Below, piece by piece: positions 1-44,282 of a DNA stretch of 44,282 bases (positions are counted from its first letter, which is position 1; the number at the start of each line of letters is the position of its first letter). The stretch is from IMG/VR virus record IMGVR_UViG_3300010352_002455; one strand, 5' to 3'. Under the pieces are notes generated by a model. The model was given only the letters and a program-made list of their open reading frames with translations. It did no database searches and was not told where the DNA came from. This stretch comes from a virus. A program made the position numbers and the translations under genes.

Positions 1-69
1 AAAAGAAAAAATAAAATTCTCTGTTTCTTCTGATGTATTAAATCCATCCATGTAGGGTGTTGTTTCGGG
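1..69. repeat. Terminal overlap, copy 1 (identical to 44214-44282)
   Basis: Compared directly: aaaagaaaaaataaaattctctgtttcttctgatgtattaaatccatccatgtagggtgttgtttcggg occurs at both ends. Confidence 0.95.
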
Positions 70-7064: not shown

Positions 7065-8732
7065 TTATTGTTGTGTTATGTTTTGAAAATAAATTTGTAT
7101 ATGATCTCCCCAAATGCGAGTATCGTCCCACACTGTTACACCATCAAACAAATATCTATTAGTGTCTGTTTCTGCCTGATTTTCAGTCCCGATATCATTT
7201 GCTGCCACATTAAGCATATAGCTAAACTCTGCACTCTGTAAATCCTCTGCCTCGTCGGCTATTACAAATGTGTTTGGAAGTATAGATATCAGATATGTTT
7301 TGTTATTAAGAATTCTATAGTTAAATTTCTGTTCAACGGCATCACTGAGCAACTGCATTTCCTCTTTTGTTTTAGCTCCTGTCCGGGCTGTGTATAATGT
7401 TAATTTTTGAGAGAAATCAATTTCAGTAGCTCCGTTTTTCACAACCTTGTCTCCTTCCGTCTCTTTTTCTACCAACTGATTTTCTATAAAAAACGACTCC
7501 AGAACACCGTATTTGTTCTGCAAAAGAAATTCTTTTGCAAAGAAGGGTTTCTCTTCTAAAACAAAGGTTCTTTTAAAAGTCATCACATCTCCGGCCGAAA
7601 GTCCCGTAAATGTAAATGTAATTGTATAGGATAAGATATCGCCGGCATACTGATCAAGTCCGAGGGCTTTAAATGAAACTGGCACACGAGTAATTGCGTT
7701 GTGCTTAAAAGAAATCTGTCCGGTTGCGTGCGATGAAACGGTTGTGCCATCTTTGAGAAGCAAATCAACCTTATATGTATCTGCCTGATCAGCGGCCGCG
7801 ACGTAAATAAAATATAAAAATTGAGGCAAATCCTTGTAACTTTTTACGGTTAAATTATTGGGGCTTCCGTAGTTTCTTGGCTGATTATATTCCGATAGTT
7901 TTTTCTCATTATGAAACGTGATCCAGTCCGGGAGATTGACAGAGCGAGGATATTCATACTGTTTTGCATTCAGGGCAATCAAATCAGCAGATTTTTTCAC
8001 AGTTTGAACCGCCGGAGTATCTCCGTACACTTCTGCATACATTATATTATATAGTATAGTTGCATATTGGAGGGCATATCCGCCAACCGGATCGGAGATG
8101 TTTGGAACGTCACATTCTTCGAAGTAACTCTTCAAAATATCAAGCTGCAGTTTAGCAATATTATTTTCATCAACAGAAATTATCATTTCTGGAGTGCGAA
8201 TAGTCTCTTGGATTGACTGTGAATATCTTTTAATCAGAAGCTGAGTGTAAACAAAATAATTTGACAGTCTAATTCTACTAACTCCTACCACAGATTCGGC
8301 TAATACAGTGTAATGAGTAATCCTGTCGTCTGTTGAGATTGTAAGATTATACTCACTGCCCACTTCCTTGGCTGCGAAGGTAACTATTACCCCATTTCCG
8401 CTTATAACAGCAGTTATATCATAATATTTATTGAGCAAATAGTGATATACGATTTTGTCTTCAAAGGATTCAAGGATTTTTGCAATTGAAAGAGCAACAG
8501 CCATCCTGTCTGGATACTTTGCAGCAATAACATATTGACTTATTGTAAATGTAAGTGACGTATTATTAAACGAAAATGTGATTTTTTGATTAATATTAGG
8601 CAGCGAAGTAAAATAGAATTGCTTATAAAACTTAACCCCCGAAATTGAATTAGGGGTGCAGTTAAATTTAGCAGCAAGAGAGTTCTGTGCAAAATCAACA
8701 TCGAAAGGCCGTTCACTTAAATAGATACTCAT
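7065..8732 (-). CDS. Tail structural protein immediately downstream of the tape measure (distal tail or baseplate candidate)
   Basis: 555-aa ORF overlapping the tape measure stop by 4 nt. The call rests on position only. Confidence 0.45.
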   Translation of the reverse strand: MSIYLSERPFDVDFAQNSLAAKFNCTPNSISGVKFYKQFYFTSLPNINQKITFSFNNTSLTFTISQYVIAAKYPDRMAVALSIAKILESFEDKIVYHYLLNKYYDITAVISGNGVIVTFAAKEVGSEYNLTISTDDRITHYTVLAESVVGVSRIRLSNYFVYTQLLIKRYSQSIQETIRTPEMIISVDENNIAKLQLDILKSYFEECDVPNISDPVGGYALQYATILYNIMYAEVYGDTPAVQTVKKSADLIALNAKQYEYPRSVNLPDWITFHNEKKLSEYNQPRNYGSPNNLTVKSYKDLPQFLYFIYVAAADQADTYKVDLLLKDGTTVSSHATGQISFKHNAITRVPVSFKALGLDQYAGDILSYTITFTFTGLSAGDVMTFKRTFVLEEKPFFAKEFLLQNKYGVLESFFIENQLVEKETEGDKVVKNGATEIDFSQKLTLYTARTGAKTKEEMQLLSDAVEQKFNYRILNNKTYLISILPNTFVIADEAEDLQSAEFSYMLNVAANDIGTENQAETDTNRYLFDGVTVWDDTRIWGDHIQIYFQNITQQ

Positions 8733-11700
8733 AATACTGATTTATTCCTTAAAAATGTTTCATCACTGTCAAATTCTGTAAGCAGCTTACGATCAACAGA
8801 AGCCCTCCTGTTTTTCGGATCACTCATATACTTGGTAAACTCTTCTACTTTGTTGTACATCTTTTTTATCGTTTCATTGTCACTGTTATTTTGATAATAA
8901 TTGTTCACCACAGGTGTTTGAGAGGTCACAAAACTACGTGATAAGGATGACGCCGCTTGGGACATGTTTTTCTGATTAGGAACAGAAACGGTATTAAAAA
9001 TTGACTTGCTGCCACGCTGATAGGCCTCCAACTCTGATATAATTCCGGCTGTTTTTTTATCTTTTAATAAAGAATGAGAAGCAACCCATTCTTCTCCTTG
9101 CTCACCTGCCTTATAAACAGTCTCTTTTTTAACATAACCACCGCGGGCGTATGGTGCCGGTTCTGATTGTATTGCTGCAATTTCTGCCACAGTAGAAGCC
9201 GCACACAACGCTGCTGCAATAACACCTTCAACACTAAAACCTAATTGGGCAAATGTAGAAACAATTGCCAATGCTCCCTGAATGGCGGCTTGGGAGGATG
9301 CTAAGGCTTTGCTTCTTTTCCACTGTTCCAGGGCAATTTGTTTTTCCTTTGCATCGGTTTCTTCTTCAATCTTTTGCTTTTGGGAGTTATAATAAGCTTC
9401 TGATATAAGTCCCTTGTCATACCTTTCCTGTAGGGTATCAAGTTTTCCTTCCTGTACTTCTTTATATTTGTTTAATTCAGATTCTGCGTTGTTGTTTTGA
9501 ATTTCAGTAACCGAATTCATTATTGAGCCGATCGACCGATAAGCCTCTTCTACAGCGGCAATAATTTTTTGAAGATTTGTTTTCCAGTCATTTAAAAAAT
9601 TATCCCAATCAATTGTAAATAGGCCTGCAATTCCACTTTTATCATCTTCTTTTTTTAAAACAACTTCTATTTCTTCTCCCAGTTTCTTTTTAAGCTCCTC
9701 AATCTGTTTTTTTAGTTTTTCAATCAATTCTGCGTTGGCAACCGGATCAATCTCTACCAGCTCATCCATGCTCGTCTGTGCAAGCTTTATTAAGAGATCA
9801 TATTTATTCTTTACTTCGTCAATTTGTCTTTCTGTCTCGGTTTTAAGGGCATCAGTAATTTCCCCCTGTGCGTCTTTGATGATGTTAATCTGATTTTCAG
9901 ATTTAAGCCTGATTGCCTCATTCATTCGCTCCCAGGTGGTGATCATGGTTTGCCTTACATCCTCTGCCTCTTGTGGATCTTGTGTTTCAGAATAGAGTAT
10001 CTCGAGCTCGTTGAGAATGTCTTTATAATCATTAATGATTTTATTCCACTCTGTATCAGAAACCTTTAGTTTTTCAAGTAAGGGATTATCACTTCCAAGT
10101 CGTTTTTCTGCACTGTCATAAATTTTTTGAATTACCTCATTATATTTAACAAGGTATTTTTGACCGGCGGCTATAATAGCTTCTCCCTTTTCTTTTTCAA
10201 GCTCTCCTGCTATTTTTTTACCACGCTCACCAAATTCCAGAGCCTCCTTAATCATCTGATCGTATTCATAGGTTATGGAGGCTTTCTCTTTTTCAAAATC
10301 AGTAAGTTGGTCTATCTGTTGTTTTGCCCTGAAATTTGCCTGTTTTTCATAGAAAGACTTCCAGGCATCTTCTCTCTTTTTCAGCTCTGCTTTTTCCTCG
10401 TCGGTAAGTTCATTATTGTTGTTAATTTCTTTGTCTCCCAGTTTCTTTTTATCTTCAATCAATTTTTCAAGAGCGGTTATTTCCTTTGCATATTGTATTT
10501 TACCGGCAGCCGTTTTAGCATCTACAAATTTTTTATTTAGTTCCGCCAGTTGTTTTTCAAGACTTTCCATTTCCGAAAGTTGCGTTTTTTCACTTTCTCC
10601 AAACAATATTTCAGCCTTATTGATTTCATCGTTCAACTGCTTATTATAGAATTGATATTCATATATGTTTTTGTCGAGTCCGTTTTTCAATGAAACATTA
10701 TATTTTTTTAAAAATGCGGTTAGTTTATCAGATGGAGTATAACTTACATAAACCTGTCCGGCGTTAGAAGTAAATATCTCGTCTTTAATAATATTTTCCT
10801 CGTCCATTAGTTCTCTTAATTCAGACATAGCTTCTCCTGCCTTATCTAAGTCTGTAATTTGTTGTTGTATGTTTTCAAAAACTCTTTCCCCGCTTTTTTT
10901 AACCTTTTTCCCTTGTTTTTCATATATTTCATCAACGGCATTATTTCTAAATTTTAAACGGATCTGTTCCTCTAACTTTTGATTAATAGCGCCGAGCACA
11001 ACATCGAGATTCTTTAGATTGTTTTTTTCATCGATAAGCTGATCCCTGTATACTCCATATTTTTCTGTTATCTTTTGAATTATCCTTTCCCGCTCCTCTG
11101 AGCCCTTTGTTGTTGCCGCAAGTTGTGACAGCAACTTTTTAGCCTCTGTCTTTTGCTGTGAAATTTCCACGGTCATTTCCCCCATGTTTTTTTGCAAAAC
11201 AGAGGTTTCTTTTCCCCATTTAGCAATTGCATAAACAATAGCGGTTATGGCGACAAGTATTGCAGTCCAGGGCAGTTTAAGCATTGTAATCCTGAGTGCC
11301 TCCTGTGCGGCTGCATGAAGTGTTATTTTTTTCGCTGCCAAATCGTGTGCAAGTGCATGATAGTATAGTCTTAGCGTAGAAAGGTTTGTGACAACATTGC
11401 TAAGTTTTTTTGATACAATCGAGGCCTGTTCAGCTACAATTTCCTTAGTTTTAAATGCAAGAAATTTGGCTCCTGCAATCAAATACTTTGAATAGGCAGC
11501 TACTAATATAAGAATCAACCCCTTATTTTCACTAATAAAAGTAGAGAGCATGCCAATTGCCTTGATCAAACCTGTAGAACCCTTTGTAATTTTAAGAAGT
11601 ACCGGATAAAATTTTTCTCCCAATTCAAGGCGTTGATCCTGAAACTTTTTCTTAGACTTTTCAAGCTCTGCATTTAGATTGTTGTTGTTGGTATTAAATT

Positions 11701-12853
11701 CTTTAAGAACAGAATTTCCATCTTCGAAAGCTTTGTTTGACAATTGTTGCCCCTGAATTATTGTATCATATTTTTCAGAAAGAATTGCAATAACCGAAGC
11801 GGCACGCGCACCCTCTGCACCAAGGTCCTTGAAAAGAGGTGCTAAGTCTTTTAGTCCACCCTTTTTATTTAATCCCTCAAAAACCCTTAACAGAGCGGCG
11901 TTCATATCTTTTCCTATCAAGTCGTTTAACTCTTTAACGGGAATACCGGCCGCATTTGCTACGCTTTCTGTTTTATTAACCATTTGAATAATAAACTTAT
12001 TCAAAGCGGTTGCGGACATTTCAACCTGTTGTGCATTTTGATCCAATACGGAACCGTATCCTATTATGTCAGCAACTGAAATACCGGCCTGATTTGCAAC
12101 GCCGGATAATCTGTTTGTGAAATCAAGAAGATATGATTCAGCAGCCGTAGAGCTTTGTCCGACCTGATTAATAGCAGATGCAACTTTGAGCATTCCGTCC
12201 TTGTATCCATATACCTTTGTAAGGTCAAACATTTCAGCCAGTTTTCCCATTTGCTTTACTGCATCTTCACCTAAGTCTTCTCCCAAAGAAATTTGTATGA
12301 TATCAGCGGCTGCAACAAAATCCTTTAAATTTTGAACCCCCTCAATGCCCAACTTTCCTGCTTCTCCGGCAAGGCGGTTGAGTTCCTCTCTAGATGTCCT
12401 TGTGTCCATTTTCTTAAACTCTTCATTGAGTTGAAGAACTTCATCTCTCGTGAGGTTTGCATACTTCTGAACACTTGCATAAACATCGTCCATGGCGGCC
12501 AAATCTGTTGCCAACTTCTTTAAATCCATGGCAGTCTGATTGAGCTGCTGAAATGTTTCTATCCAACCACCGATACCGGCACCAAGCATAACAATTCTTT
12601 TGCTAAAGGTGTCCCATAAATTGCCGGAAACCTTAAGCGCATTATTGTGCTCATTAATTATTGATTTAAGCTCTCTAATTTTTTTTGCGTGAGCAACATA
12701 CTGATCACTGCCAATTGTCATCCTGTTTTGTTCATTTACAAGATGTGTCATGGCGGCTTTAATATCTTTAATCTCACTCTTTACTTCTGTCCCGTTAATG
12801 TATAGCCCGATTGTTCTCTTAACTCCTTGTGCCATTTCTTTGTTTTTAAACAA
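8729..12853 (-). CDS. Tail tape measure protein
   Basis: 1374 aa. TP901-type core (..AAESYLLDFTNRLSGVANQAGISVADIIGYGSVLDQNAQQVEMSATALNKFI..), central hydrophobic helices and long Lys/Glu-rich coiled coils. Confidence 0.85.
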   Translation of the reverse strand: MFKNKEMAQGVKRTIGLYINGTEVKSEIKDIKAAMTHLVNEQNRMTIGSDQYVAHAKKIRELKSIINEHNNALKVSGNLWDTFSKRIVMLGAGIGGWIETFQQLNQTAMDLKKLATDLAAMDDVYASVQKYANLTRDEVLQLNEEFKKMDTRTSREELNRLAGEAGKLGIEGVQNLKDFVAAADIIQISLGEDLGEDAVKQMGKLAEMFDLTKVYGYKDGMLKVASAINQVGQSSTAAESYLLDFTNRLSGVANQAGISVADIIGYGSVLDQNAQQVEMSATALNKFIIQMVNKTESVANAAGIPVKELNDLIGKDMNAALLRVFEGLNKKGGLKDLAPLFKDLGAEGARAASVIAILSEKYDTIIQGQQLSNKAFEDGNSVLKEFNTNNNNLNAELEKSKKKFQDQRLELGEKFYPVLLKITKGSTGLIKAIGMLSTFISENKGLILILVAAYSKYLIAGAKFLAFKTKEIVAEQASIVSKKLSNVVTNLSTLRLYYHALAHDLAAKKITLHAAAQEALRITMLKLPWTAILVAITAIVYAIAKWGKETSVLQKNMGEMTVEISQQKTEAKKLLSQLAATTKGSEERERIIQKITEKYGVYRDQLIDEKNNLKNLDVVLGAINQKLEEQIRLKFRNNAVDEIYEKQGKKVKKSGERVFENIQQQITDLDKAGEAMSELRELMDEENIIKDEIFTSNAGQVYVSYTPSDKLTAFLKKYNVSLKNGLDKNIYEYQFYNKQLNDEINKAEILFGESEKTQLSEMESLEKQLAELNKKFVDAKTAAGKIQYAKEITALEKLIEDKKKLGDKEINNNNELTDEEKAELKKREDAWKSFYEKQANFRAKQQIDQLTDFEKEKASITYEYDQMIKEALEFGERGKKIAGELEKEKGEAIIAAGQKYLVKYNEVIQKIYDSAEKRLGSDNPLLEKLKVSDTEWNKIINDYKDILNELEILYSETQDPQEAEDVRQTMITTWERMNEAIRLKSENQINIIKDAQGEITDALKTETERQIDEVKNKYDLLIKLAQTSMDELVEIDPVANAELIEKLKKQIEELKKKLGEEIEVVLKKEDDKSGIAGLFTIDWDNFLNDWKTNLQKIIAAVEEAYRSIGSIMNSVTEIQNNNAESELNKYKEVQEGKLDTLQERYDKGLISEAYYNSQKQKIEEETDAKEKQIALEQWKRSKALASSQAAIQGALAIVSTFAQLGFSVEGVIAAALCAASTVAEIAAIQSEPAPYARGGYVKKETVYKAGEQGEEWVASHSLLKDKKTAGIISELEAYQRGSKSIFNTVSVPNQKNMSQAASSLSRSFVTSQTPVVNNYYQNNSDNETIKKMYNKVEEFTKYMSDPKNRRASVDRKLLTEFDSDETFLRNKSVL

Positions 12854-15890: not shown

Positions 15891-16544
15891 TTATACTGTT
15901 TCATTATAGTATTGTAAAACTTCATCTGAATTCCATTCTTTACTATCTACAATAACTTCATCTATATCTCCATTAAAATTATATGTTCCTGCTCTATTTC
16001 CGATTTCAACAGGAATGTCATTTACTGTTGTGTTTGTCAATGGTCCCCCACTTTTTGTAGTTGTAACCTCATTCCCATTTACATACATCTTTATACCAGC
16101 AGCAGTTGAGCTACCGGAATATGTTATTACAATGTGCGTCCACGTATTTATACTTGTAAATAAATAATATACTGACAAGTATCCAGTCACACCAACAGGA
16201 ACCAATTGAAAATAAATTCTATTCTGGTTATTTTGCCAAAATGAAACTCCATTTGAACTTCCATCTGCTTGTTTTGAAACAAAAAATCTAGTTCTATTAA
16301 TATCATTTAATTTAAACCACAATGAGACTGTAAAAGGAATATCTCTATCAAAATCAAATTGATTTTCATTGTCAATAACAATTTTATCCGTTGTTGCATT
16401 AAAAATAGCACATTGACCTATATGTCCACTTTCATAAGTTATTCCTGTTCCAATGCCATTATTACCATAATTTGATGAATCAAATGTATTTCCATCAAGA
16501 TGTAACCATAATTTTCTTTCCGATAAAATATGTTCTTTAATCAT
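15891..16544 (-). CDS. LamG / concanavalin-A-like lectin domain protein
   Basis: ..FTVSLWFKLN.., ..WTHIVITYSGSSTAAGIKMYVNGNEV.. and ..GDIDEVIVDS.. are canonical LamG (Laminin_G_3-like) motifs. MIKEH N-terminus. Confidence 0.65.
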   Translation of the reverse strand: MIKEHILSERKLWLHLDGNTFDSSNYGNNGIGTGITYESGHIGQCAIFNATTDKIVIDNENQFDFDRDIPFTVSLWFKLNDINRTRFFVSKQADGSSNGVSFWQNNQNRIYFQLVPVGVTGYLSVYYLFTSINTWTHIVITYSGSSTAAGIKMYVNGNEVTTTKSGGPLTNTTVNDIPVEIGNRAGTYNFNGDIDEVIVDSKEWNSDEVLQYYNETV

Positions 16545-20053: not shown

Positions 20054-20512
20054 ATGAAAAATTTAAATACAAAAATACCACAGGTTGGCATCTTTTTAGT
20101 CAACAAAATAGATTTAAATGAAGCAAAGAAAATCACAACTGCCCAACAGGCTGCAGACGTTTTTAAAGCAATTGAAGACTTTAATAAAACAATAGATTGT
20201 TATGAACAGTTTTACACTATTTATTTGAATCAAAATAGTAAAATACTTTCTGTTTGTTGTATCGGTTCTGGCGGTGAAACCTCTTGCACTGTATCGATTC
20301 AAAAGATTGCGCAGGGTGCAATCTTACAAAATGCACAAGGAATTATATTATCACACAATCACCCCAGCGGCAACCTTGCCCCATCAGACCAGGATAAAAA
20401 GCTAACAAGGCAAATAGTATCAGCAATGGAATTATTTAATATAAAAGTGTTAGACCATTTAATTATAACATCAGACAATTATTATTCATTTTCAAATAAC
20501 GGAATTATTTAA
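20054..20512 (+). CDS. radC: RadC-like JAB/MPN domain protein
   Basis: ..GIILSHNHPSGNLAPSDQDKKLT.. matches the RadC/JAB motif HNHPSG..PS..D. Confidence 0.8.
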   Translation: MKNLNTKIPQVGIFLVNKIDLNEAKKITTAQQAADVFKAIEDFNKTIDCYEQFYTIYLNQNSKILSVCCIGSGGETSCTVSIQKIAQGAILQNAQGIILSHNHPSGNLAPSDQDKKLTRQIVSAMELFNIKVLDHLIITSDNYYSFSNNGII

Positions 20513-20530
20513 CAAAAAAAAATTAAAGCA

Positions 20531-20944
20531 ATGAATACAATAAACAGACAAGAACAGTATAACAGACTTTTAAAGTCATCTTTAGAGGCAAGGGATATAA
20601 GAGAAGGCTTATTGAATAACGCATTAGAACAGAAGAAAACAAACCTTTATTCATTTTTTGAAAGTAAACCACTTAACTATTTTATAGTGAATTATGTTTA
20701 TAAAACAAAACAAGATAATATATTTAAAAAATTTAAAGAGTGGAAAAAAGAAGGTGCAACAGTTAAAAAAGGAGAAAAAGCGTTTCCGGTTTGGGGTTTG
20801 CCGGTTGGCGTGCAGAAAGTGAAAGAGGCTTTAAAAAACGGCAAAAATTATGAGCCAACGCCCGAAGAAAAAGAAAAATTTCCAATGTGTTATATTTTTT
20901 CAAACAATCAAGTAAGTTTTAACGAAAATCAAAAAGGGGGTTAA
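20531..20944 (+). CDS. ArdC N-terminal-like (DUF1738-type) ssDNA-binding domain protein, anti-restriction candidate
   Basis: ..FKKFKEWKKEGATVKKGEKAFPVWG.. and ..CYIFSNNQV.. resemble the ArdC-N motifs F.Q...G..V.KGEK and Y.VFN..Q. Confidence 0.45.
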   Translation: MNTINRQEQYNRLLKSSLEARDIREGLLNNALEQKKTNLYSFFESKPLNYFIVNYVYKTKQDNIFKKFKEWKKEGATVKKGEKAFPVWGLPVGVQKVKEALKNGKNYEPTPEEKEKFPMCYIFSNNQVSFNENQKGG

Positions 20945-27611: not shown

Positions 27612-28775
27612 TTAAAGCTCTTGCCCAAGTTCCTGGGCAACGGCTTGATATTTTGGATCATTTTTCATTTTATCCTCAAAAGAATCCTCTTTATCTTTTC
27701 CGTCTTTCCCATTAATTGGTTTTTCGCCCGGAGCAGGGATATTGTCAATTTTGGCCTGTAATTCATCGCGCTCCTGAACTGCGGCGGAAAGATCTGCTTC
27801 AGCCTTTTCTTTTTCTTTTTTAAGAGCTGTATTTGCAGCTTCAAGGGAATCGACTTTGGCAAGCTTATCCTCGATGAGTTTAAGCTGTTCTTCATTCATG
27901 TTGAATCCTTTTTCAGGATCAAAAGCAGTTTCGGCCGCTAATGCAAGCAAAGCGACCATTAAAGGAAATTTTTTCATTTCAATAAAATTTTGATTTATAC
28001 TTGTGTTTGTGTTGTCTTTGCCATCACTCGAGAAAAGGGCAATGATCTTGTCTTTATATTGATCAAACCAATTTTCCTTTTTGTCGGAAATCAGGTTTGT
28101 AAAAGCCTCAGGGATTTCAGGAAGTTTGCTATTGTTAAACGTTTCGCGAGAAAAGGAAGCAGCCTTGGCGGTTTCATTATAAATATCTGTTGCAAATCCA
28201 ATGTCCTTAACTTCTGTAGCGGGGATCCATTTCCCCTCCCCATTGTTGTAATTCATCAAATCGTTGAGTTTTTGTTCGTCAACAACTCCACTTTCTTTGT
28301 AAATAGACATTATTCTTTGGTCTATTTGTTTGAATGATTCAATGGCGGCTTCAAGTTGATTAGCGTTTCCGCGACTATACCCCCAGCATTTATGTACCAA
28401 GAAAAGAGCATTTTTGGAAATTTTACGTTCTGATCCGGCTGCGAAAAGAATCGTAGCCGCAGATGCACACATCCCGTTGATTTGTGTGATTACATTTGCC
28501 TTAAGGTCTTTTAATTGATCATAAATAGCGAGAGCATGATCAACATCTCCTCCAAGAGAATGAATTTTTACTAAAACCGTTTTTGCTTTGAGAGCCCGTA
28601 TTTTATTGAGCTCTTCTGTCATCAGCCGGTTGGTGTTTTCATCATACTCATGATCTCCCCACCAGTCCTCATAGCCAATTTGACCTTCGACTATAATTTC
28701 AGCCTGATCTTCAGAGGCTTCATTAATGAATTGTAATTGATTGAATTTCTTTGCCATATCTTTGTTTTTCAACAA
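27612..28775 (-). CDS. ClpP-family (S14) prohead protease fused to a scaffold-like coiled-coil C-terminus
   Basis: ..VKIHSLGGDVDHALAIYDQL..INGMCASAATILFAAG..LFLVHKCWG.. shows ClpP-like Ser and His motifs. The C-terminus is a Lys/Glu/Ala-rich coiled coil. Confidence 0.75.
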   Translation of the reverse strand: MLKNKDMAKKFNQLQFINEASEDQAEIIVEGQIGYEDWWGDHEYDENTNRLMTEELNKIRALKAKTVLVKIHSLGGDVDHALAIYDQLKDLKANVITQINGMCASAATILFAAGSERKISKNALFLVHKCWGYSRGNANQLEAAIESFKQIDQRIMSIYKESGVVDEQKLNDLMNYNNGEGKWIPATEVKDIGFATDIYNETAKAASFSRETFNNSKLPEIPEAFTNLISDKKENWFDQYKDKIIALFSSDGKDNTNTSINQNFIEMKKFPLMVALLALAAETAFDPEKGFNMNEEQLKLIEDKLAKVDSLEAANTALKKEKEKAEADLSAAVQERDELQAKIDNIPAPGEKPINGKDGKDKEDSFEDKMKNDPKYQAVAQELGQEL

Positions 28776-30424: not shown

Positions 30425-33208
30425 CTATAAATCTGAGTGTACTTCAGTACCATAAGTTTTTAGATAATACATTTCAACCGTTTTGCCGTCTATTTTTTTC
30501 ATAATCCGTAGCGGGTCGTTTCTTAATTCCAAGGGGTTTAAACATTCTATATAATCCGTATTGGCTACAAAGGCTTTCAATGCCTTTGTAAACTTGCTGC
30601 TTGACCACCCCTTTAGGTTTGTGGATCTTATAAACTCCTCAATACATTGCGCTTTGTATATCAAACAATCCACGTTTTCACTGTTTTTATTAAAGTAAAC
30701 CTCTGCCCATTCACGGAACTGTTCGCCCATTTGCTGTATGTTCATACGCTTTATGACGTTCTGCATCGGTGGCTGAATCATTAGATTGTCTTTGATTGTA
30801 GACAGGTAAAATTGAATGCAGTCAACGCAAAAATTAAAATCCTCGTTCCACCATTCTTCGGTATATTTTTCATTATAAAGATCATAACCAAAATCATCGG
30901 CAATTCTCATATCTACCGAATATTTATTCTCATCTGTGGCTTTATGGTAGTAATCACTGAATACACAAAACAATATTCTTCTCATTGTACTACTATCCTT
31001 GTCGTGCGGCGGAAAATTCGATGTAACGGCAATTTTAGCCGATTTTCCGAAGTCAATTTCCTTTGACTTTACATTCTTCTCGTTTATATTCATGCTGCCG
31101 GTAATCATCGAATAAAAAAAGTTGAAATCAAAGTATTTATAAGCATCATCAATTAAAAGAATATCCGTATGTTCATCAACACGATCCATGACGTGCTGGT
31201 TTTCCGTTAACTTCTGATTCCGTCCGGGCAAGGATACCATATTTTTCAAATTCTTCAGAAATTCAAACAAAAAAGACTTTCCGGATCCTCCGGCACTTTC
31301 ATCTTCTTCGGAGAGTTTATTTTCCATCACCCAAACACCCCAAGCGCGCGATGGTGATTTGTACCGGTGAAGCAAATAGCCTATTGTGAATACTTTATTT
31401 ATTAAGTGTTCTAACTGCTCCTGATTTTCTTCTTCAGATAGGCGCGGAGAGGCTATAGCGAATTTATATTGTTTCAAAAATTCATCATTGGCTTGAATAT
31501 CTTTTTCTGCCCGCGTTTCAAATTCTTCATGCCAGTATATCCTGCTTGCATTAATGAGAAATCTAAATAAATGGCTTTTTTTATGTTTAATCTCAAAGTT
31601 AATACACTCCGTTTCGTTGTCGTATTTTGCCATAAATGCCGGTTCAATCCTTTTAAAATAATGTGGGGATACTTTCTTTTGCCATGCATACACACCGGTT
31701 TCATTTCCTCTGTTTTCTTCTATTTTATCCGAATAAATTGTAATAGCTTTATTCTTAAAGAAGAATATCTGATTTTCAGCAGAATAATCTGTAAAGTCCG
31801 GTAGTAAATCTTCCAAATCGTCCATCACGGAAACTCCGGTTCTTTTTGAATTGAGAATAAGATTTTGGATATCATGGTCAACTTTCCGATCCTCTAAAAA
31901 TTTGAGAATAAAGCCCCTGATTTGCTTTCCGGTAATTTCTTCAACCGTGTAGCCGGTAATCTTGATAAAAGTTACTTTTCCACTCTCAACGTCCGTTATT
32001 TTCCCGAAGCCATTCACCTTAAGAAAGTGCAGCATATAAACGGTATTGATTTCCCACTTAACTCCTTCTTTGCTGTATGATTTTTCCCAGAATTTACAGG
32101 GTTTGGCCATGCGGATCAATTCTTTAAAATCAAAAATATTCGGGTATAGTTCGACAAAGTCCCGGAGATCCTTTCGCGGCTTTCCCCTCATATCTTTATA
32201 TGTCCGAAGATTTTCCGGAAGTTCTATGGTGAAAATGTCTATGTATTCAAGGGCTAATTCATTCCCCTTTTTCACTCCGGTTTCATCGATGTCCGGAATA
32301 TTATAGATTCGCTCTACTCTCTTTAAAATCTCACTGTATTGATAACTGTCCAACTTAGCCGTTTCACTGTTAAGCCATAGCGGTAGGTAACCCATACCGG
32401 CAACATTTAAGGCATCTCGCTCCCCGGAACAAAAAATTGCTTCAGGTAGTTTTTTGGGTTTTCTTTCTTTTTTTGTATCAGGAGTTTTTTCTTCGTCAAA
32501 TTCATCGTCTTCTTCTTTTTCGATTTCTTTTAGATATTTTTCATAAGCTCTTTTTAACTCATCCATTCCGTTGATATAGTTTTTGGGCTTTACTCCATCA
32601 TAAAAAAACCTGAAAGCCTTATCAGGGTTGAGTGGTTGATATATCTTCCGAAACTCTCCACAATTCCGCATAAAAATCGGATATGTTTCAGTTGATGAAA
32701 TTGTGGTAGTTTTACGGTCCTTTGTCTTTGTATAGCTTTCAACAGAAAAATATGAATATTTGTCACAGGTTTCCTGCTTAACCATGTGGCCAAGTACTTT
32801 AAGTTCAAATTCTGAAAACTTCTCTTTTAGTTTATAACTGAAGGCTCCTTCTTTTTCTTCCAGAGTAGCCTCTCTTTGTTCAATGGCAGGTTTATTGACC
32901 GTGAAACTTAGCTTCTCTGATACTTCATATCGTTCTGCAAGCCGGTAGAGAGCTTCTCTGAACTCCAAATTTTCCTCTCTCATACAGATTTCAATTGGGG
33001 CCATGGCTGTCCCATCATCACCGAAATCGGTTACTTTCCATATCCCGTTCAATTGTTTCATTGATGCAGAAGCAGTTTTTTCGTTTCCTCGAATTTTGAA
33101 AAAACGTTGTTTTCCTTCAGTATCCTTTGCCTGCGGATAATAATAATAAATGATTTCCCTGCCGGCGTCGGTAGCATCATAAATCTTTTCAAGTAGAGAG
33201 TTTTTCAT
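30425..33208 (-). CDS. Primase-helicase (Toprim primase domain fused to a D5/P4-type SF3 helicase)
   Basis: 927 aa. Toprim-like ..FCSGERDALNVAG.. and ..IPDIDETG..; Walker A ..SAGGSGKSFLFEFL..; Walker B ..DILLIDDA... Confidence 0.8.
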   Translation of the reverse strand: MKNSLLEKIYDATDAGREIIYYYYPQAKDTEGKQRFFKIRGNEKTASASMKQLNGIWKVTDFGDDGTAMAPIEICMREENLEFREALYRLAERYEVSEKLSFTVNKPAIEQREATLEEKEGAFSYKLKEKFSEFELKVLGHMVKQETCDKYSYFSVESYTKTKDRKTTTISSTETYPIFMRNCGEFRKIYQPLNPDKAFRFFYDGVKPKNYINGMDELKRAYEKYLKEIEKEEDDEFDEEKTPDTKKERKPKKLPEAIFCSGERDALNVAGMGYLPLWLNSETAKLDSYQYSEILKRVERIYNIPDIDETGVKKGNELALEYIDIFTIELPENLRTYKDMRGKPRKDLRDFVELYPNIFDFKELIRMAKPCKFWEKSYSKEGVKWEINTVYMLHFLKVNGFGKITDVESGKVTFIKITGYTVEEITGKQIRGFILKFLEDRKVDHDIQNLILNSKRTGVSVMDDLEDLLPDFTDYSAENQIFFFKNKAITIYSDKIEENRGNETGVYAWQKKVSPHYFKRIEPAFMAKYDNETECINFEIKHKKSHLFRFLINASRIYWHEEFETRAEKDIQANDEFLKQYKFAIASPRLSEEENQEQLEHLINKVFTIGYLLHRYKSPSRAWGVWVMENKLSEEDESAGGSGKSFLFEFLKNLKNMVSLPGRNQKLTENQHVMDRVDEHTDILLIDDAYKYFDFNFFYSMITGSMNINEKNVKSKEIDFGKSAKIAVTSNFPPHDKDSSTMRRILFCVFSDYYHKATDENKYSVDMRIADDFGYDLYNEKYTEEWWNEDFNFCVDCIQFYLSTIKDNLMIQPPMQNVIKRMNIQQMGEQFREWAEVYFNKNSENVDCLIYKAQCIEEFIRSTNLKGWSSSKFTKALKAFVANTDYIECLNPLELRNDPLRIMKKIDGKTVEMYYLKTYGTEVHSDL

Positions 33209-33214
33209 TCCAAA

Positions 33215-33550
33215 TTATTTAAAATAGTGTTTTAGGACGATCACGTCCCATTTTTGTGAGTGTATATTAATATTATAGTTTGAATACATTTTTTCCATCA
33301 TTTTGATGGAATCTTCCTTATTTAGTCCGCAATCCATATAAAAAATGGGATCCGGAATGTCTACAAGGTTGAATGTTGAAATGTGAATACATTTTACAAC
33401 TCCGGCGGCTTCACAATCTTTCCGTAGATGGACCTCGTAATTATATATCTCACCTTCTTTGTATTTATTCTGGTTATGAATTCTGATTGTGGTAAAGATA
33501 TCACAAGCCATTTTCCCATTCCAATTTTTTGAGAATTTTATTGTTTGCAT
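33215..33550 (-). CDS. Hypothetical protein (possible ASCH/PUA-like fold, weak)
   Basis: 111-aa ORF. ..FTTIRIHNQNKYKEGEIYNYEV.. faintly resembles ASCH. Confidence 0.4.
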   Translation of the reverse strand: MQTIKFSKNWNGKMACDIFTTIRIHNQNKYKEGEIYNYEVHLRKDCEAAGVVKCIHISTFNLVDIPDPIFYMDCGLNKEDSIKMMEKMYSNYNINIHSQKWDVIVLKHYFK

Positions 33551-33580: not shown

Positions 33581-33892
33581 TTAACTAAAATAAAAGGTTT
33601 TACCGGTTCCGAATTTTTGTTGCTTAATAGTAGCCATAAAAGGAAAATCTGTTTTAGGTATTTTAGATAATGCTTCCTTTATTGGAGTAGCATTAGTAAA
33701 AAACTTTTTTTCAGATCCTTCAAATAATACCTTAACTATATATCTTCCATCCCCGTGCCGTGTTTTTACATTCGCTTCAAAATCAATTACCTCAATTTCG
33801 CAATTTACAACGTCTTCAACTGAAATTACAGGAACGGAAAAGATGTGTTTTCCTTCAAAAGGATCTATGTTAAAATCAGAAAATTTATTCAT
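33581..33892 (-). CDS. Hypothetical protein, apparently translationally coupled to the DGR RT
   Basis: 103-aa ORF whose start overlaps the RT stop by 8 nt. By eye it looks beta-rich and near-neutral in charge, so it is not Avd-like. Confidence 0.5.
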   Translation of the reverse strand: MNKFSDFNIDPFEGKHIFSVPVISVEDVVNCEIEVIDFEANVKTRHGDGRYIVKVLFEGSEKKFFTNATPIKEALSKIPKTDFPFMATIKQQKFGTGKTFYFS

Positions 33893-34931
33893 ATCTTATT
33901 ATTTTTTTAAGAAGGTTATTTGAGTTACAATGCTTTGCCCAACCGATATGAGGGGCAATTGCTTTCTTATAATCTAAAATAGAAATGTCTTTTTTATTCA
34001 ACTTTGCAGCTTTTCTGCAAAATCTTTTCTTTATGCTTTTTCGCATCCGGATATGTGTATGATAAAATACATATCCTACAAAATCAATACCTCTTTTTTC
34101 AATAGGGAAAACCTGATAATTGCCCTTTATTTGCAACTTTAGATTGTCTTTCATATATCTGTCTATCTCAAGATACAAATCTTGCAAATACGGCTTATTT
34201 TGAGCTAAAATTACAATATCATCTGCATAGCGATAATAATATTTTACCTGTTTTTCCTCTTTAATACAATGATCGAAATAAGTCAAATACAGGTTTGCAA
34301 AAAATTGACTTAAATAATTCCCTATCGGAACACCAGGAGCGGAATCAATTATTTCATCAAGTAATTTTAAGAGCTTAACATCTTTGATTTTTTTACGAAT
34401 AATAACCTTTAGGATATCATGATTTATGCTTGGATAAAATTTCCTAATATCAAATTTCAAACAATATTGAGTGTCTGAAACATTTTTTAAATCACGTTTT
34501 AAATCTCTTAAAACAGCGTGTATTCCTCGTTTTTTTATGCAAGAATATGTATTTGAAATAAAAACAGATATCCATATCGGTTCCAAGATGTTCATAATGG
34601 CATGGTGAACTATACGATCACGAAAAGGAAGTCTGTAAACAAGTCTTTCTTTCGGGTCGTGTATCATAAAAACACTATATTCAGACGTTACATAAGTTTC
34701 TGATATCAGTTCCTTTTGTAACTCATTTATGTTGTTGTTCAAGTTTTTTTCAAACAATCGAACACCATAACTCTTTTCTTTTCCTTGACTTGCTTTGTTA
34801 TATGCAAGATAAAGATTGTCAATTTCACAGATCTTTTCGTATAAATTTCCTATTCTTTTCATGCCTTTGCTTTTATTATGAGCTTTCGTTATTACTACCA
34901 GCACATTTTTTAATATGTTATTTTTTGCCAA
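33885..34931 (-). CDS. DGR-type reverse transcriptase
   Basis: ..VPIGNYLSQFFANLYL.. (the DGR-typical SQ motif), ..YYRYADDIVILA.. (YxDD) and N-terminal ..IGNLYEKICEIDNLYLAYNKA... The true start may be the internal ATG at 34862 (MKRIGNLYEKI..), which would leave about 100 nt between TR and RT. Confidence 0.9.
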   Translation of the reverse strand: MAKNNILKNVLVVITKAHNKSKGMKRIGNLYEKICEIDNLYLAYNKASQGKEKSYGVRLFEKNLNNNINELQKELISETYVTSEYSVFMIHDPKERLVYRLPFRDRIVHHAIMNILEPIWISVFISNTYSCIKKRGIHAVLRDLKRDLKNVSDTQYCLKFDIRKFYPSINHDILKVIIRKKIKDVKLLKLLDEIIDSAPGVPIGNYLSQFFANLYLTYFDHCIKEEKQVKYYYRYADDIVILAQNKPYLQDLYLEIDRYMKDNLKLQIKGNYQVFPIEKRGIDFVGYVFYHTHIRMRKSIKKRFCRKAAKLNKKDISILDYKKAIAPHIGWAKHCNSNNLLKKIIRYE

Positions 34932-34959
34932 GAGGCAGGGTCTTTACCTTTAAAATCGT

Positions 34960-35041
34960 ATTGCATAGGTGGGAGGTGTCGGTCGCATTCGCATTCGAGT
35001 TGTTGTAATTCGAGTTGTTGAAAACGAGCCCCGACGGCGAG
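34960..35041 (-). repeat. DGR template repeat (TR)
   Basis: The coding-strand register reads ..SPSGLVF-NNSNYNNSNANATDTSH.. with 7 AAY codons. It aligns without gaps to 35144-35225 and 35531-35612, and differs only where the TR has A on the minus strand. Confidence 0.9.
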
Positions 35042-35074
35042 CTCCAAAAAGGCAAACAACCTGTTGTCATTTTA

Positions 35075-35434
35075 TTATAGAATAATGTTTTTATAAACTT
35101 CTGTAAAAGTTTTACCTGCATGATCGGATGCTTTTTCCGATTCAAAGCAAAGGCGGGAGGCGTCGGCCGCAACCGCATACGAGACGTAGTAACTCGAGCA
35201 GTCGAAAACGAGCCCCGACGGCGAGGATGGGTCTATCCGAAACACCGGAAACCATTTTTTTTGATTGGTGTCCATCATGTCCGGTTTCCATCCATCGTTG
35301 ATTGCTTCTGTTAATACAATTGCATTATACTGATCTTCAAAATATGCCCGTAGGTCATCAGGTGAGTTTGAAAAATCTACTTTTGGTCTTTTGGTAACCT
35401 CAAATGCTTCATCAAGTGTTTCTGTTTTTTTCAT
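35075..35434 (-). CDS. DGR variable (target) protein 1, small and leaderless
   Basis: 119 aa. The C-terminal ..SSPSGLVFDCSSYYVSYAVAADASRLCFES.. contains VR1. Confidence 0.85.
   Translation of the reverse strand: MKKTETLDEAFEVTKRPKVDFSNSPDDLRAYFEDQYNAIVLTEAINDGWKPDMMDTNQKKWFPVFRIDPSSPSGLVFDCSSYYVSYAVAADASRLCFESEKASDHAGKTFTEVYKNIIL
35144..35225 (-). repeat. DGR variable repeat 1 (VR1), including an IMH-like 3' end
   Basis: In the 74-bp core (35152-35225) there are 13 mismatches to the TR, all at TR adenines. The 3' end is GC-rich (cgcctcccgcctttgcttt on the coding strand). Confidence 0.9.
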
Positions 35435-35461
35435 TTTTTTTTGTTTTATGCCTTTCGGCGG

Positions 35462-35941
35462 TTATTTAATAAATTTGGCGTATAATGCTGTAAAAGTTTT
35501 GCCTGCATGATCAGACTTTTCTTTCGATTCAAAGCAAAGGCGGGAGGCGTCGGTCGCAATCGCAACCGAGCAGTCGTAATACGAGTAGCAGAAAACGAGC
35601 CCCGACGGCGAGGATGGGTCTATCCGAAACACCGGAAACCATTTTTTTTGATTGGTGTCCATCATGTCCGGTTTCCATCCATCGTTGATTGCTTTAGAAA
35701 TAGTTTTAAGCTTTCTATAGACAATTTCATCATCAGTGAAGCCATTTCGTTTCATGTCAATTTCATTTATTTGTTCTTCGTCCAATTCATCACAGGCAGT
35801 TTGATATGATATAACCCTGTCAATTACACTTTTGGAAAAGAAATTCTTTCCAAAACTATCTTCAAGCATTGATTTGAATTCTTTAGAAGCTGTTTTATAC
35901 AACTCTCTTGCTTTTTTTTCTTCAATTTGTAATGTTTTCAT
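35462..35941 (-). CDS. DGR variable (target) protein 2, small and leaderless, paralogue of target 1
   Basis: 159 aa. The C-terminal ..INDGWKPDMMDTNQKKWFPVFRIDPSSPSGLVFCYSYYDCSVAIATDASRLCFES.. contains VR2. Confidence 0.85.
   Translation of the reverse strand: MKTLQIEEKKARELYKTASKEFKSMLEDSFGKNFFSKSVIDRVISYQTACDELDEEQINEIDMKRNGFTDDEIVYRKLKTISKAINDGWKPDMMDTNQKKWFPVFRIDPSSPSGLVFCYSYYDCSVAIATDASRLCFESKEKSDHAGKTFTALYAKFIK
35531..35612 (-). repeat. DGR variable repeat 2 (VR2), including an IMH-like 3' end
   Basis: In the 74-bp core (35539-35612) there are 12 mismatches to the TR, all at TR adenines. The fixed IMH-like differences are the same as in VR1. Confidence 0.9.
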
Positions 35942-36080: not shown

Positions 36081-36305
36081 TTATCCCAAATGGGGAATTA
36101 TATATTTTTCAAAATGGATTAATCTTTTTCCACCGTATCTTTGCCAAGATGAGCTATTAATCTTTTTACAATACATCCAAATTGACCAATATCCCTTTGG
36201 ATAGCCACCATTTGTGTCTATTGCTAATTTGTATCTATTTCGCTCAATAGAAACTCTTTCAATTAGCCAGAAAATAAGAATTATTTCAATTAAATCTAAA
36301 TTCAT
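36081..36305 (-). CDS. Small hypothetical protein with a hydrophobic N-terminus
   Basis: The track ORF starts at 36353, but that extension reads through the tRNA-like element. The ATG at 36305 gives MNLDLIEIILIFWLIERV.. (74 aa). Confidence 0.4.
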   Translation of the reverse strand: MNLDLIEIILIFWLIERVSIERNRYKLAIDTNGGYPKGYWSIWMYCKKINSSSWQRYGGKRLIHFEKYIIPHLG

Positions 36306-36329
36306 ATTGTTTGTTTTAAATTGTTTTTG

Positions 36330-36372
36330 CTCCGGAGCGAGGAATCGAACCACGCTGAAGAACCATTCCGGA
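36330..36372 (-). ncRNA. tRNA-like minihelix or tRNA 3'-half fragment (acceptor stem plus T-arm only)
   Basis: The minus strand reads tccgga(a)-11 nt-cgtgg-TTCGATT-cctcg-(c)tccgga-g. It has a canonical GGTTCGATTCC T-loop, a 6-bp acceptor-like helix and a G at the discriminator position. There is no D-arm or anticodon arm. Confidence 0.45.
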
Positions 36373-36378
36373 TTAGTT

Positions 36379-36948
36379 TTAGTCGAGGATCACCCAGTCT
36401 TCTGCTAAGATGTCTGTTTGTGAGGCCAACCAGCCATTTACAATTCTACCATTAGCATCTTTAAGACACAAGTAGGCAGTAAATTCTACCACATCACTTT
36501 CATCGATTTCAATTGCTTTTCCATCCATATCGAAGCAATCATGCAAATAGTAGTCTTTTACTGTTTGCGGGAGTGATTTGATGTTGTTTGCTACAACATC
36601 AACCCTGATTTCGTCAGCGGGGCGCATAAAAATAAACATTCCTTTTCCATTCCATCCTTCTCGTGCTACTCTTTTCCCTTGTTTTAAGGCTTTAATAGCA
36701 TCTCCGAATGTGAGGTTCCCATTTTCTGTTTCGTTAAAATCAAAAAGGACCTTACACTCTTTTCCTTCAACGAACAGCCTTGCCGCATCCGGATTAACTG
36801 TTCCGATTGAAATATTTCCATACGGAGTCATTTCAAAAAACATGTCGTTTTCAAAAGAACCGCATGTCACAACATCAAGAGTTATTAATTCTCCAGAACC
36901 GCGAACCTCTTTTTTTGTTACTTTAAATTTTGTAAGTACTTTGCTCAT
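36379..36948 (-). CDS. DUF2829-domain protein (Tad2-like anti-Thoeris candidate) with a ~80-aa N-terminal extension
   Basis: ..LTFGDAIKALKQGKRVAREGWNGKGMFIFM.. and ..NGWLASQTDILAEDWVIL match the DUF2829 consensus at both ends. Confidence 0.7.
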   Translation of the reverse strand: MSKVLTKFKVTKKEVRGSGELITLDVVTCGSFENDMFFEMTPYGNISIGTVNPDAARLFVEGKECKVLFDFNETENGNLTFGDAIKALKQGKRVAREGWNGKGMFIFMRPADEIRVDVVANNIKSLPQTVKDYYLHDCFDMDGKAIEIDESDVVEFTAYLCLKDANGRIVNGWLASQTDILAEDWVILD

Positions 36949-42474: not shown

Positions 42475-43602
42475 ATGGATTCACAAAAAAAAATATTTGT
42501 TGATTATATACCTTGTCAGGTGTCTTTCAAAAAAAGTTGCCGTCTATATTTTTATGCGTATAACCCAGAAATCGGCAAACTTAAAAGAGTTGTAATTAAA
42601 TGCAATACAATAAAAAATCGTTCTGAAAGGATTAAATATGCAAAGTCTTATTGTGAAGTTATTAACGATAAATTGAGGAACGGATGGAATCCTTTTGTTG
42701 ACAAAATGATGACAAGGGGATATGTAACATTAGAGTATGCAATTAATAATTTTTTGAAAGAAAAAGGAAAAGACAGTCGTCCTGCTACTAATAACAGCTA
42801 TATGTCCTACTGCGGAACCTATAAAACATGGCTACAGGATATTAATATGCTAAATAGTTACTGTTTCCTTTTTACAGAAACAGAGGCAAATAGATATATG
42901 TCTTATATTAGCTCTACTCGCACAATTACTTCACGAACATGGAATAATTATATTCGTTTTTTTACAACAATGTTTAACAATTTTATTGAAAAGCAATACT
43001 TAAAAAAGAATCCATTTTCGAACATAAAGAGAAAAAAAGTTGATGAAAAGAAAAGAGAGATAATTCCTCCAGATACGAGAAAAAAAATGAAAGAATATCT
43101 TATAAATCACAATTTTAATGAGTATTATATAATAATGTTACTATGCTATAGATGTTTCATTCGTCCAAAAGAAATAGGGTGTCTTAAAATTCAGAATATT
43201 GATTTCAAAAACAATCAAATAGAAATCCCTTCCGATATTGCTAAGAATCATCACAACAGAATTGTAGGCATTCCGGATGAAATAATGGAATATCTGAAAA
43301 CATTACAGGGTTATCCGAGAGATTACTATATCTTTTCAACGCGATGGAAGCCAGGAAAGCAATTAAAGCACACAAGGGATATTGGAAAAGTTTGGAACAA
43401 AATGAGAGAAGATTTACAGCTTCCGACAAAGTATCAATTTTATAGCCTAAAAGATACCGGAATAACAGAAATGCTTGAGGCAGGTGTCCCGGCAAAATTT
43501 GTCAAAGAATTAGCAGATCATAGCAGCCTTGATATGACGGAAAAATACACGCATAAAACTGCAGCTTCCGAAATTTTAAAATATAATAAATTGGAGTTCT
43601 AA
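42475..43602 (+). CDS. int: Tyrosine recombinase / phage integrase
   Basis: 375 aa. C-terminal catalytic region ..FIRPKEIGCLK.., ..KNHHNRIVGIP.. and ..ELADHSSLDMTEKYTH (H-x-x-R-like box and catalytic Tyr). Confidence 0.85.
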   Translation: MDSQKKIFVDYIPCQVSFKKSCRLYFYAYNPEIGKLKRVVIKCNTIKNRSERIKYAKSYCEVINDKLRNGWNPFVDKMMTRGYVTLEYAINNFLKEKGKDSRPATNNSYMSYCGTYKTWLQDINMLNSYCFLFTETEANRYMSYISSTRTITSRTWNNYIRFFTTMFNNFIEKQYLKKNPFSNIKRKKVDEKKREIIPPDTRKKMKEYLINHNFNEYYIIMLLCYRCFIRPKEIGCLKIQNIDFKNNQIEIPSDIAKNHHNRIVGIPDEIMEYLKTLQGYPRDYYIFSTRWKPGKQLKHTRDIGKVWNKMREDLQLPTKYQFYSLKDTGITEMLEAGVPAKFVKELADHSSLDMTEKYTHKTAASEILKYNKLEF

Positions 43603-44165: not shown

Positions 44166-44282
44166 TTATTTTCTTTTAACTGTACAATACCACGGGTTTG
44201 TTGCCCACCTGTCAAAAGAAAAAATAAAATTCTCTGTTTCTTCTGATGTATTAAATCCATCCATGTAGGGTGTTGTTTCGGG
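44166..44282 (-). CDS. 3' end of the junction-spanning CDS (same gene as 1..576; 44214-44282 duplicates 1-69)
   Basis: In-frame continuation ..DRWATNPWYCTVKRK with stop TAA at 44166-44168. Confidence 0.7.
   Translation of the reverse strand, partial: PETTPYMDGFNTSEETENFIFSFDRWATNPWYCTVKRK
44214..44282. repeat. Terminal overlap, copy 2 (identical to 1-69)
   Basis: Same 69-nt string as at the window start. It lies inside a CDS, so it is most simply a circular-contig overlap. Confidence 0.95.

Follow-up and report, generated by a model that had tools for sequence, protein, structure and literature searches.

A diversity-generating retroelement of a temperate Bacteroidales phage diversifies two small early-operon proteins whose scaffold is predicted to be mostly helical and not recognisably C-type lectin

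To our knowledge, nearly all of the characterised biology of diversity-generating retroelements (DGRs) concerns extracellular recognition by tail fibres, pili and surface lipoproteins, with the diversified residues displayed on a C-type-lectin (CLec) scaffold. The main catalogued exception among phage DGR targets is the very abundant protein family PHROG 11581, and we describe here the DGR of IMG/VR record IMGVR_UViG_3300010352_002455, a stretch of 44,282 nt (the window, to the whole of which all coordinates refer) from a temperate, siphovirus-like Bacteroidales phage in which two members of this family, of 119 and 159 aa, are the diversified proteins.

The family corresponds to target cluster PC_00007 of Roux et al. 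(2021), which was listed as ‘Phage_other’, is assigned to viral DGR clade 1, has hosts in the FCB group and a relative position of the variable repeat (VR) of 0.72–0.77, and includes adjacent pairs of long and short targets next to the reverse transcriptase (RT). Because PhANNs predicted 1.6% of PC_00007 members to be structural, the cluster was treated in that work as non-structural or of unknown function. In the set curated by Wu et al. (2018), t120 (with targets of 156 and 123 aa) and t121 are given VR class CLec3. Our family profile matches the PC_00007 and t120/t121 proteins end to end, and the gene order of 159-aa target, 119-aa target, template repeat (TR) and RT matches that of t120 and of genes 2523836780/2523836781. 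The window DGR is a further member of this catalogued target class; a profile search for homologues and a survey of their contexts, both proposed in an original prediction made from the sequence of the window alone, led to this family and to early-operon contexts.

The idea of a role in intracellular conflict is likewise not new, as it has been published for one member of the family: Benler et al. (2021) described a non-structural DGR target of Quimbyvirus in a counter-defence island, ‘nested within defense-related genes’ and probably involved in phage–host conflict. We infer from the matching description that this phage is LoVEphage (MW660583.1), which, together with Bacteroides phage BI-TP1 (PQ571265.1) and Phocaeicola phage PV4-TP1 (PQ571302.1), encodes hypothetical proteins to which one PC_00007 protein is 94% identical. 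The LoVEphage TR (49383–49500) matches a VR (49670–49787) in the tail collar fibre gene by the RT, and the same TR matches a second VR (34004–34116) 15 kb away on the opposite strand, in a 194-aa family member whose gene lies among cytosine/adenine methyltransferases, PAPS reductase and RtcB ligase and runs opposite to the tail genes. A literature search on DGRs and anti-defence returned no paper on this family. Two other described systems were considered and set aside, namely the tail-fibre DGR targets of crAss-like phages, which are described in the papers as CLec tail-fibre targets (our weak crAss matches are separate small open reading frames, ORFs), and the Bacuni phage DGR, with targets of DUF1566 / pilin-tip type.

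The DGR of the window consists of the following features, which include GC-rich elements resembling the initiation of mutagenic homing (IMH) sequence and its degenerate TR counterpart (IMH*):

35462–35941 (-): DGR target 2, 159 aa, with an N-terminal helical domain, a conserved core and VR2 (PHROG 11581, E=1e-27)
35534–35612 (-): VR2, in the 159-aa target, with variable codons 118–131 at 35549–35590
35531–35548 (-): IMH-like GC-rich element of VR2
35075–35434 (-): DGR target 1, 119 aa, a shorter paralogue that shares the core, contains VR1 and lacks the N-terminal domain (PHROG 11581, E=2.8e-11)
35147–35225 (-): VR1, in the 119-aa target, with variable codons 78–91 at 35162–35203
35144–35161 (-): IMH-like GC-rich element of VR1
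34963–35041 (-): TR, 79 nt, intergenic and downstream of both targets (34960–35041 with its IMH*-like 3' end)
34960–34977 (-): IMH*-like element of the TR
33885–34931 (-): DGR reverse transcriptase, 348 aa (RVT_1, E=6.6e-17)
33581–33892 (-): 103-aa ORF, the start of which overlaps the RT stop (PHROG 19665, E=5e-30)

This cassette is a canonical adenine-mutagenesis DGR. VR2 and VR1 differ from the TR at 13 and 14 positions, all of which fall on TR adenines (13/13 and 14/14), and both VRs are identical to the TR at every non-adenine position (59/59). No other site on either strand of the window agrees with the TR at more than 29/59 non-adenine positions, and against this background there are exactly two VRs, with none in the tail, LamG or fibre-like genes. 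Translated in the VR frame the TR reads SSPSGLVF-NN-S-N-Y-NN-S-N-A-N-A-T-D-T-S-H-L-C-N. Of its eight AAY codons, seven belong to the variable core and the last, AAT for Asn, falls in the IMH*-like 3' segment; the AAY-based design allows no stop codons, and some 9–10 codons vary inside a 14-residue stretch of each target. The RT has the motifs GNYLSQ (GxxxSQ; residue 204) and YADD (residue 235), as in DGR-type RTs, and shares ~67–70% nucleotide identity with the RTs of crAss-like phages, which provided the only match when the DGR region was compared by blastn with GenBank phages. Neither PF05635 nor any other Avd-like match was found among the genome ORFs scanned. An 86-aa ORF overlapping the TR (34918–35178) was rejected as a gene, as it is merely the TR read in frame.

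The two classes of repeat can also be distinguished by their 3' elements, which read GCCTCCCGCCTTTGCTTT in both VRs and ACCTCCCACCTATGCAAT in the TR and differ only at fixed TR adenine positions. The same fixed A-to-G/T differences are seen in eight other loci in our comparison (L001, L005, L006, L009, L011, L013, L016 and L018), and in every locus four to five TR adenines at the 3' end of the repeat are swapped for the same base in every VR, so that the VR 3' consensus over loci is ...GCCTC(C/G)CGCCTTTGC... as against the A-interrupted TR, and S-H-L-C-N is encoded by the TR family-wide where the proteins always have S-R-L-C-F. By analogy with BPP-1, the TR RNA would be reverse-transcribed with random misincorporation opposite adenines and the mutagenised cDNA would then replace the VRs, with the direction of transfer probably set by this IMH/IMH*-like pair, of which the TR has only the degenerate form. 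The DGR is active, or was so recently, since a protein from another metagenome (P0032) equals the 119-aa target save for six residues, all of which are encoded by TR adenines.

The two targets are paralogues and not halves of one frameshifted gene, a possibility we rejected as each has its own start codon. The last 233 nt of target 1 are 87% identical to target 2, giving a common core of ~75 residues, and in the longer protein the VR starts at residue 118 of 159 (0.74) and ends 22 residues before the C-terminus. Both proteins are hydrophilic, with charged N-termini and GRAVY (grand average of hydropathy) values of -0.6 and -0.5, and the highest 19-residue Kyte-Doolittle means of 0.86 and 0.80 are well below transmembrane values. 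No meaningful Pfam domain was found in the two targets and 33 relatives (E<=0.05; matches to Astro_VPg, HGD-D and the like were below cut-offs and dismissed), and the Pfam and PHROG scans gave the targets no anti-defence annotation, the link to anti-defence being the adjacency of a Tad2-like gene.

Diversification of this kind is a property of the family as a whole. Exhaustive searching with the profile gave 4,498 clusters at 50% identity (E<=1e-3), or 2,912 at E<=1e-10, in what is a phage-specific family that PHROG places in its category of unknown function. Among 164 relatives the VR positions (118–131) have an entropy of 3.0–3.7 bits, and K, E, Q, M and W, the residues which cannot be reached by adenine mutagenesis of AAY codons, make up 0–3% of the VR columns and 40–77% of many flanking surface columns; in addition, the column encoded by TAC contains Y, C, F and S only and that encoded by ACC contains A, T, S and P only. 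As these spectra match the outcomes of adenine mutagenesis, and almost all of the sampled members bear the signature, DGR diversification is the rule in the family and not an accident of one phage. The scaffold also exists without a DGR, as is indicated by a 230-aa distant relative from Dulem virus 41 which has no such signature. Almost all of the 150 best representatives are 120–300 aa in length, greater lengths being due to tandem duplication of the one unit; ten longer members among these 150 had extra tandem family repeats or N-terminal extensions only, with no obvious structural domain when inspected (they were not scanned against domain libraries).

Several individual members deserve mention. 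P0042, P0075 and P0123 (277–353 aa) consist of two full units fused in tandem with a VR-like segment in each. A minimal member is found in the crAss-like phage cr4_1 (NC_055893.1; L003, 4040–4336), where an unannotated 98-aa ORF matches the profile with E=2e-6 and has the VR-like segment GLFALYSYDDLSSVHALVGTHLRF. In Bacteroides phage Versailles (ON453897.1; L019, 6001–6582) the homologue WAK79127.1 is located between NinB/recombination and replisome-organiser genes.

We modelled the 159-aa target with AlphaFold2 (AF2) using the family alignment, and obtained a confident model (pLDDT 88, pTM 0.79; the predicted local distance difference test and template-modelling scores) of six helices, one beta hairpin (101–107, 115–121), the VR and then three helices. 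Foldseek found no PDB match at E<=0.001 and no CLec protein among the 37 matches at E<=10, its matches in BFVD were to uncharacterised gut-phage proteins only, and PDB sequences searched with the profile yielded chance-level matches only, none of them relevant at E<=10. The CLec core as defined by Handa et al. (2019) has beta strands from the N- and C-termini that pair with each other, two perpendicular helices and a sheet of 3–4 strands, and with 1YU0, 2Y3C and 5VF4 as references these elements are absent from the AF2 model, in which the VR itself is modelled at low confidence. Neither the two targets nor the 33 relatives have a Pfam match to CLec-type domains (FGE-sulfatase, DUF1566 or Mtd).

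The VR has relatives outside the family. When the family was aligned by hhalign with CLec3 tail-fibre C-terminal domains, taken from Bacteroides prophage tail proteins in the supplementary data of Roux et al. (2021), the match had 91% probability (E=1.1e-6) and covered 30 VR columns only, with aligned ends of SSPSGLVF...SRLCFES in the family and GAYAGFGCASSYY...VGSRLCFIP in CLec3. As the match is confined to these columns, the VR module is common to tail-fibre CLec3 domains and the scaffold not detectably so. This means that the comparison made in the original prediction with minimal C-type-lectin-fold proteins holds for the ~30 residues of the VR that align to CLec3 but not for the rest, as the structure prediction it had proposed returned a non-CLec model, without the CLec core, and no CLec match in Foldseek. 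The new suggestion from this modelling is that the diversified patch sits on a different, confidently predicted and mostly helical scaffold. We also looked for a hidden CLec3-type tail protein in this phage and the CLec3 (A4) profile found none in the window.

The genes around the cassette are central to what the targets might do:

~40341 down to 30425 (-): early/replication operon
36379–36948 (-): Tad2-like protein, upstream of the DGR in the same operon (PF11195, E=3.4e-24)
30425–33208 (-): 927-aa primase/helicase-like replication protein, downstream of the DGR in the same operon (DUF5906, E=4e-7)
30364–30343 (-): strong intrinsic terminator with a 9-bp stem, 6 GC pairs and a T-rich tail (9/10; TCTTTTTTTT)

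The operon includes small early genes for a LuxR/sigma-like regulator, a DUF4406 nucleoside-deoxyribosyltransferase-like protein, DUF6549 and the Tad2-like protein, followed by the DGR and the primase/helicase-like gene, and the terminator ends this minus-strand unit before the head and tail genes (a sigma-70 promoter scan was set aside as the consensus is unsuited to Bacteroidota, and we retained the terminator result alone). The targets are probably transcribed with the early/replication genes. The descriptive part of the original prediction stands here: it had placed the VRs in small, leaderless proteins of 119 and 159 aa that are encoded outside the virion module and close to a Tad2-like gene of the early/replication operon, and had seen no diversified tail protein and no VR in the receptor-binding candidates, with which the TR/VR comparison and hydropathy, the Pfam assignments of the neighbours and the terminator (the targets are ~20 kb from the tail genes), and the scan of the whole genome for other sites all agree.

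On balance we lean towards the view that the targets are non-virion, early-expressed hypervariable binders which act inside the infected or lysogenic cell in phage–host or phage–phage conflict. Neither target is located in the structural module or has homology to a structural family; the terminator splits their operon from the late genes, their neighbours are the Tad2-like and primase genes, PhANNs predicts very few of the family members to be structural, and the LoVEphage member lies in a methyltransferase/RtcB island. A more specific and rather speculative version, which we would not rate as probable, is that the scaffold represents a second, non-C-type-lectin display fold, in which the terminal VR/IMH module (~30 residues) of a tail-fibre CLec3 domain has been grafted onto an unrelated helical early protein, and that it gives Bacteroidales phages an antibody-like set of binders within the cell, aimed at variable defence proteins of the host or at rival-phage proteins.

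A number of points weigh against an intracellular role. The VR is derived from, or common to, the receptor-binding VRs of tail fibres, and the sharing of one TR by the tail collar fibre and the small protein of LoVEphage would fit a virion adaptor. The structural case consists of one model in which the VR segment has low confidence (pLDDT ~63), and the finding of no signal peptide or transmembrane segment in either target was made by hydropathy only, with no signal-peptide predictor. Roux et al. (2021) also cautioned that unannotated target clusters could be uncharacterised structural proteins, and the Versailles homologue is annotated as a ‘tail protein’, though this label probably comes from the likeness of its VR to tail-fibre VRs and is likely to be misleading.

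The homology of the VR, the TR shared in LoVEphage, the Versailles annotation and the caution of Roux et al. are what can be said for regarding the targets as virion-associated adhesins or adaptors which are made from a non-structural operon and bound to the tail or capsid through the scaffold, where they would provide a second, independently diversified receptor-binding patch; the DGR would then be a conventional tropism-switching one. The tip adhesins of the T-even gp38 type offer an analogy for such proteins, and it is the tail-fibre ancestry of the VR and the TR common to both LoVEphage targets that keep this explanation alive. We nonetheless think this main rival unlikely, as in every locus with enough flank the targets are in early/replication operons, with a terminator or a change of orientation between them and the late genes, and because of the PhANNs result, the absence of an obvious structural fusion in the ten longer members inspected, the loss from the short paralogue of a possible anchor in the form of the N-terminal domain, and the lack of a CLec3 tail protein in this phage.

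If the targets are non-virion binders, their ligands need not be those of the host. The phage is temperate, as it has an integrase gene:

42475–43602 (+): integrase

Many of the relatives are prophages in Bacteroidales genomes, and the targets might be exclusion or immunity factors expressed from the prophage, in which the variable patch binds and blocks components of superinfecting phages. The common ancestry of the VR with phage receptor-binding sites and the presence of up to three paralogues per phage would agree with this, but the genes are in a lytic early operon with the primase and RT and not beside a repressor or the integrase, and we consider exclusion an improbable role.

Further analysis of related loci indicates that the DGR is a portable, Avd-less cassette in which the 103-aa ORF comes last, an arrangement we report here for the first time. 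A TR is accompanied by two, or in some cases three, A-biased VRs in tandem members of the family in 14 further loci, the sources of which are metagenomes, IMG/VR and the GTDB genomes of Paludibacter and other Bacteroidales (searches for related loci that used one protein or a closer sub-alignment gave four loci each), and in eight loci the complete order of long target, short target, TR, RT and an ORF of 103–105 aa was retained. Several cassettes are in Mu-like transposable prophages of Bacteroidales, with an rve transposase, AAA_22 MuB-like protein, Portal_Mu and Mu_F, where the cassette ends the rightward early operon and faces the late genes; the early-operon placement was found in every related cassette fetched with enough flank. 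L018 (Paludibacter sp. 221, 10001–11392) has three tandem targets, and in L007 a third diversified paralogue of 132 aa (1986–2384) is located 5 kb upstream of the cassette among early genes. In L015 (10001–11003) and L017 (3597–4640) the TR and two A-biased VRs are kept and tblastn found no RT in the fetched flank, and none of the ORFs downstream of the TR in L015 was RT-like when read; loss of the RT, or its action in trans, could account for these two loci.

The constant position of the targets directly upstream of the TR and RT could also mean that they are components of the retroelement or hitch-hikers on it, for example retrohoming accessories in a DGR for which Avd was not detected in the genome, with hypervariability as a tolerated by-product that involves no ligand binding. 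The loci which keep a TR and VRs with no RT nearby could be read in this way too. We find this very improbable, as copies far from an RT are also diversified (L007 and LoVEphage), relatives without a DGR exist (Dulem virus 41), and the stop-free AAY design and strict conservation of the scaffold are as seen in selected binding sites. The better-conserved ORF after the RT is in any case the better candidate for an accessory. It has 51–77% identity among Bacteroidales homologues and 51–69% in the eight cassettes where it occupies the same position, and is much better kept than the targets. The AF2 model (pLDDT 87) has the topology beta1–3, alpha, beta4–5, and Foldseek gave weak matches only (E 0.1–1) to the oligonucleotide/oligosaccharide-binding (OB) domains of SSB, RPA, Teb1 and RuvA; on the basis of this model the 103-aa protein may be an OB-fold-like accessory factor of an Avd-less DGR lineage.

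An exact 69-nt direct repeat is found at the two ends of the window (1–69 = 44214–44282), from which we conclude that the phage genome is complete, with ~44,213 bp (~44.2 kb), and circularly permuted or terminally redundant. It has a GC content of 35.5% and almost all of the genes are on the minus strand. The principal late features are:

about 771–29862: tail and head genes
3287–3928 and 15891–16544: LamG-domain proteins
8729–12853: tape measure protein
27612–28775: prohead protease

Three LamG-like proteins had been expected from the initial inspection, and the two listed were confirmed while the third was not. Two small ORFs near the DGR have no Pfam or PHROG match, one of 111 aa between the 103-aa ORF and the primase (33215–33550, -) and one of 90 aa between the Tad2-like gene and the 159-aa target (36081–36353, -). 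A plus-strand island (20054–20944) interrupts the structural genes of the minus strand; it codes for a RadC-like JAB protein (20054–20512, E=2e-35) and an ArdC-N anti-restriction-like protein (20531–20944, E=3e-6), and looks like a moron-like counter-defence insertion.

What this work adds to the catalogue is evidence for a scaffold that is not recognisably CLec, the portable Avd-less cassette with its OB-fold-like ORF, and the link to cultured phages. The window provides a clean case, as the small proteins are the sole targets, lie beside the Tad2-like anti-defence gene of the early operon, and have a confident scaffold model which is non-CLec. If the targets do act intracellularly, DGRs would drive arms races after entry as well as at adsorption, and the scaffold would be a compact (~75–120 aa) natural platform for libraries of intracellular binders; the cultured carriers BI-TP1, PV4-TP1 and Versailles make the question directly testable.

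The closest described systems are PC_00007 and t120/t121, from which there is no essential difference: they are the same family, with a long and a short target in tandem directly ahead of the RT, the same VR position and Bacteroidetes (FCB) hosts. It should be noted that they were published as a catalogue and that ‘CLec3’ names the VR motif and not a demonstrated fold. LoVEphage/Quimbyvirus likewise has a small family target outside the structural module in a counter-defence-like island, but there the TR also serves the tail collar fibre and the small target is remote, whereas in the window the small targets are the sole ones and adjoin the RT; the LoVEphage VR is also longer (~113 nt) and its RT is fragmented or frameshifted.

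Two better-known groups of targets share parts of this system. The large CLec3 targets (hankyphage-type, t115–t123 of Wu et al. and PC_00002, ‘Phage_struct’, of Roux et al.) are homologous over their last ~30 residues (GF..S.Y..S.A.A.GSRLCF), and the RT lineages are related, as RT cluster t122 serves 208 PC_00007 and 139 PC_00002 targets (Roux et al. 2021). However, the ~230 residues before the VR in the large proteins have no counterpart in the small targets, and the large proteins end at the VR where the small targets add two helices. The BPP-1 DGR shares A-specific retrohoming, a GxxxSQ RT, an AAY-rich TR, a GC-rich IMH with a degenerate IMH* in the TR and a target upstream of the TR and RT, but its target Mtd forms the trimeric tip of the tail fibre and has a complete CLec fold with the VR at the extreme C-terminus. 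In contrast, the targets of the window are proteins of 119 and 159 aa from an early operon, with a VR which stops short of the C-terminus and no CLec core in the predicted structure, and the cassette has a beta-rich 103-aa ORF after the RT in place of an Avd gene.

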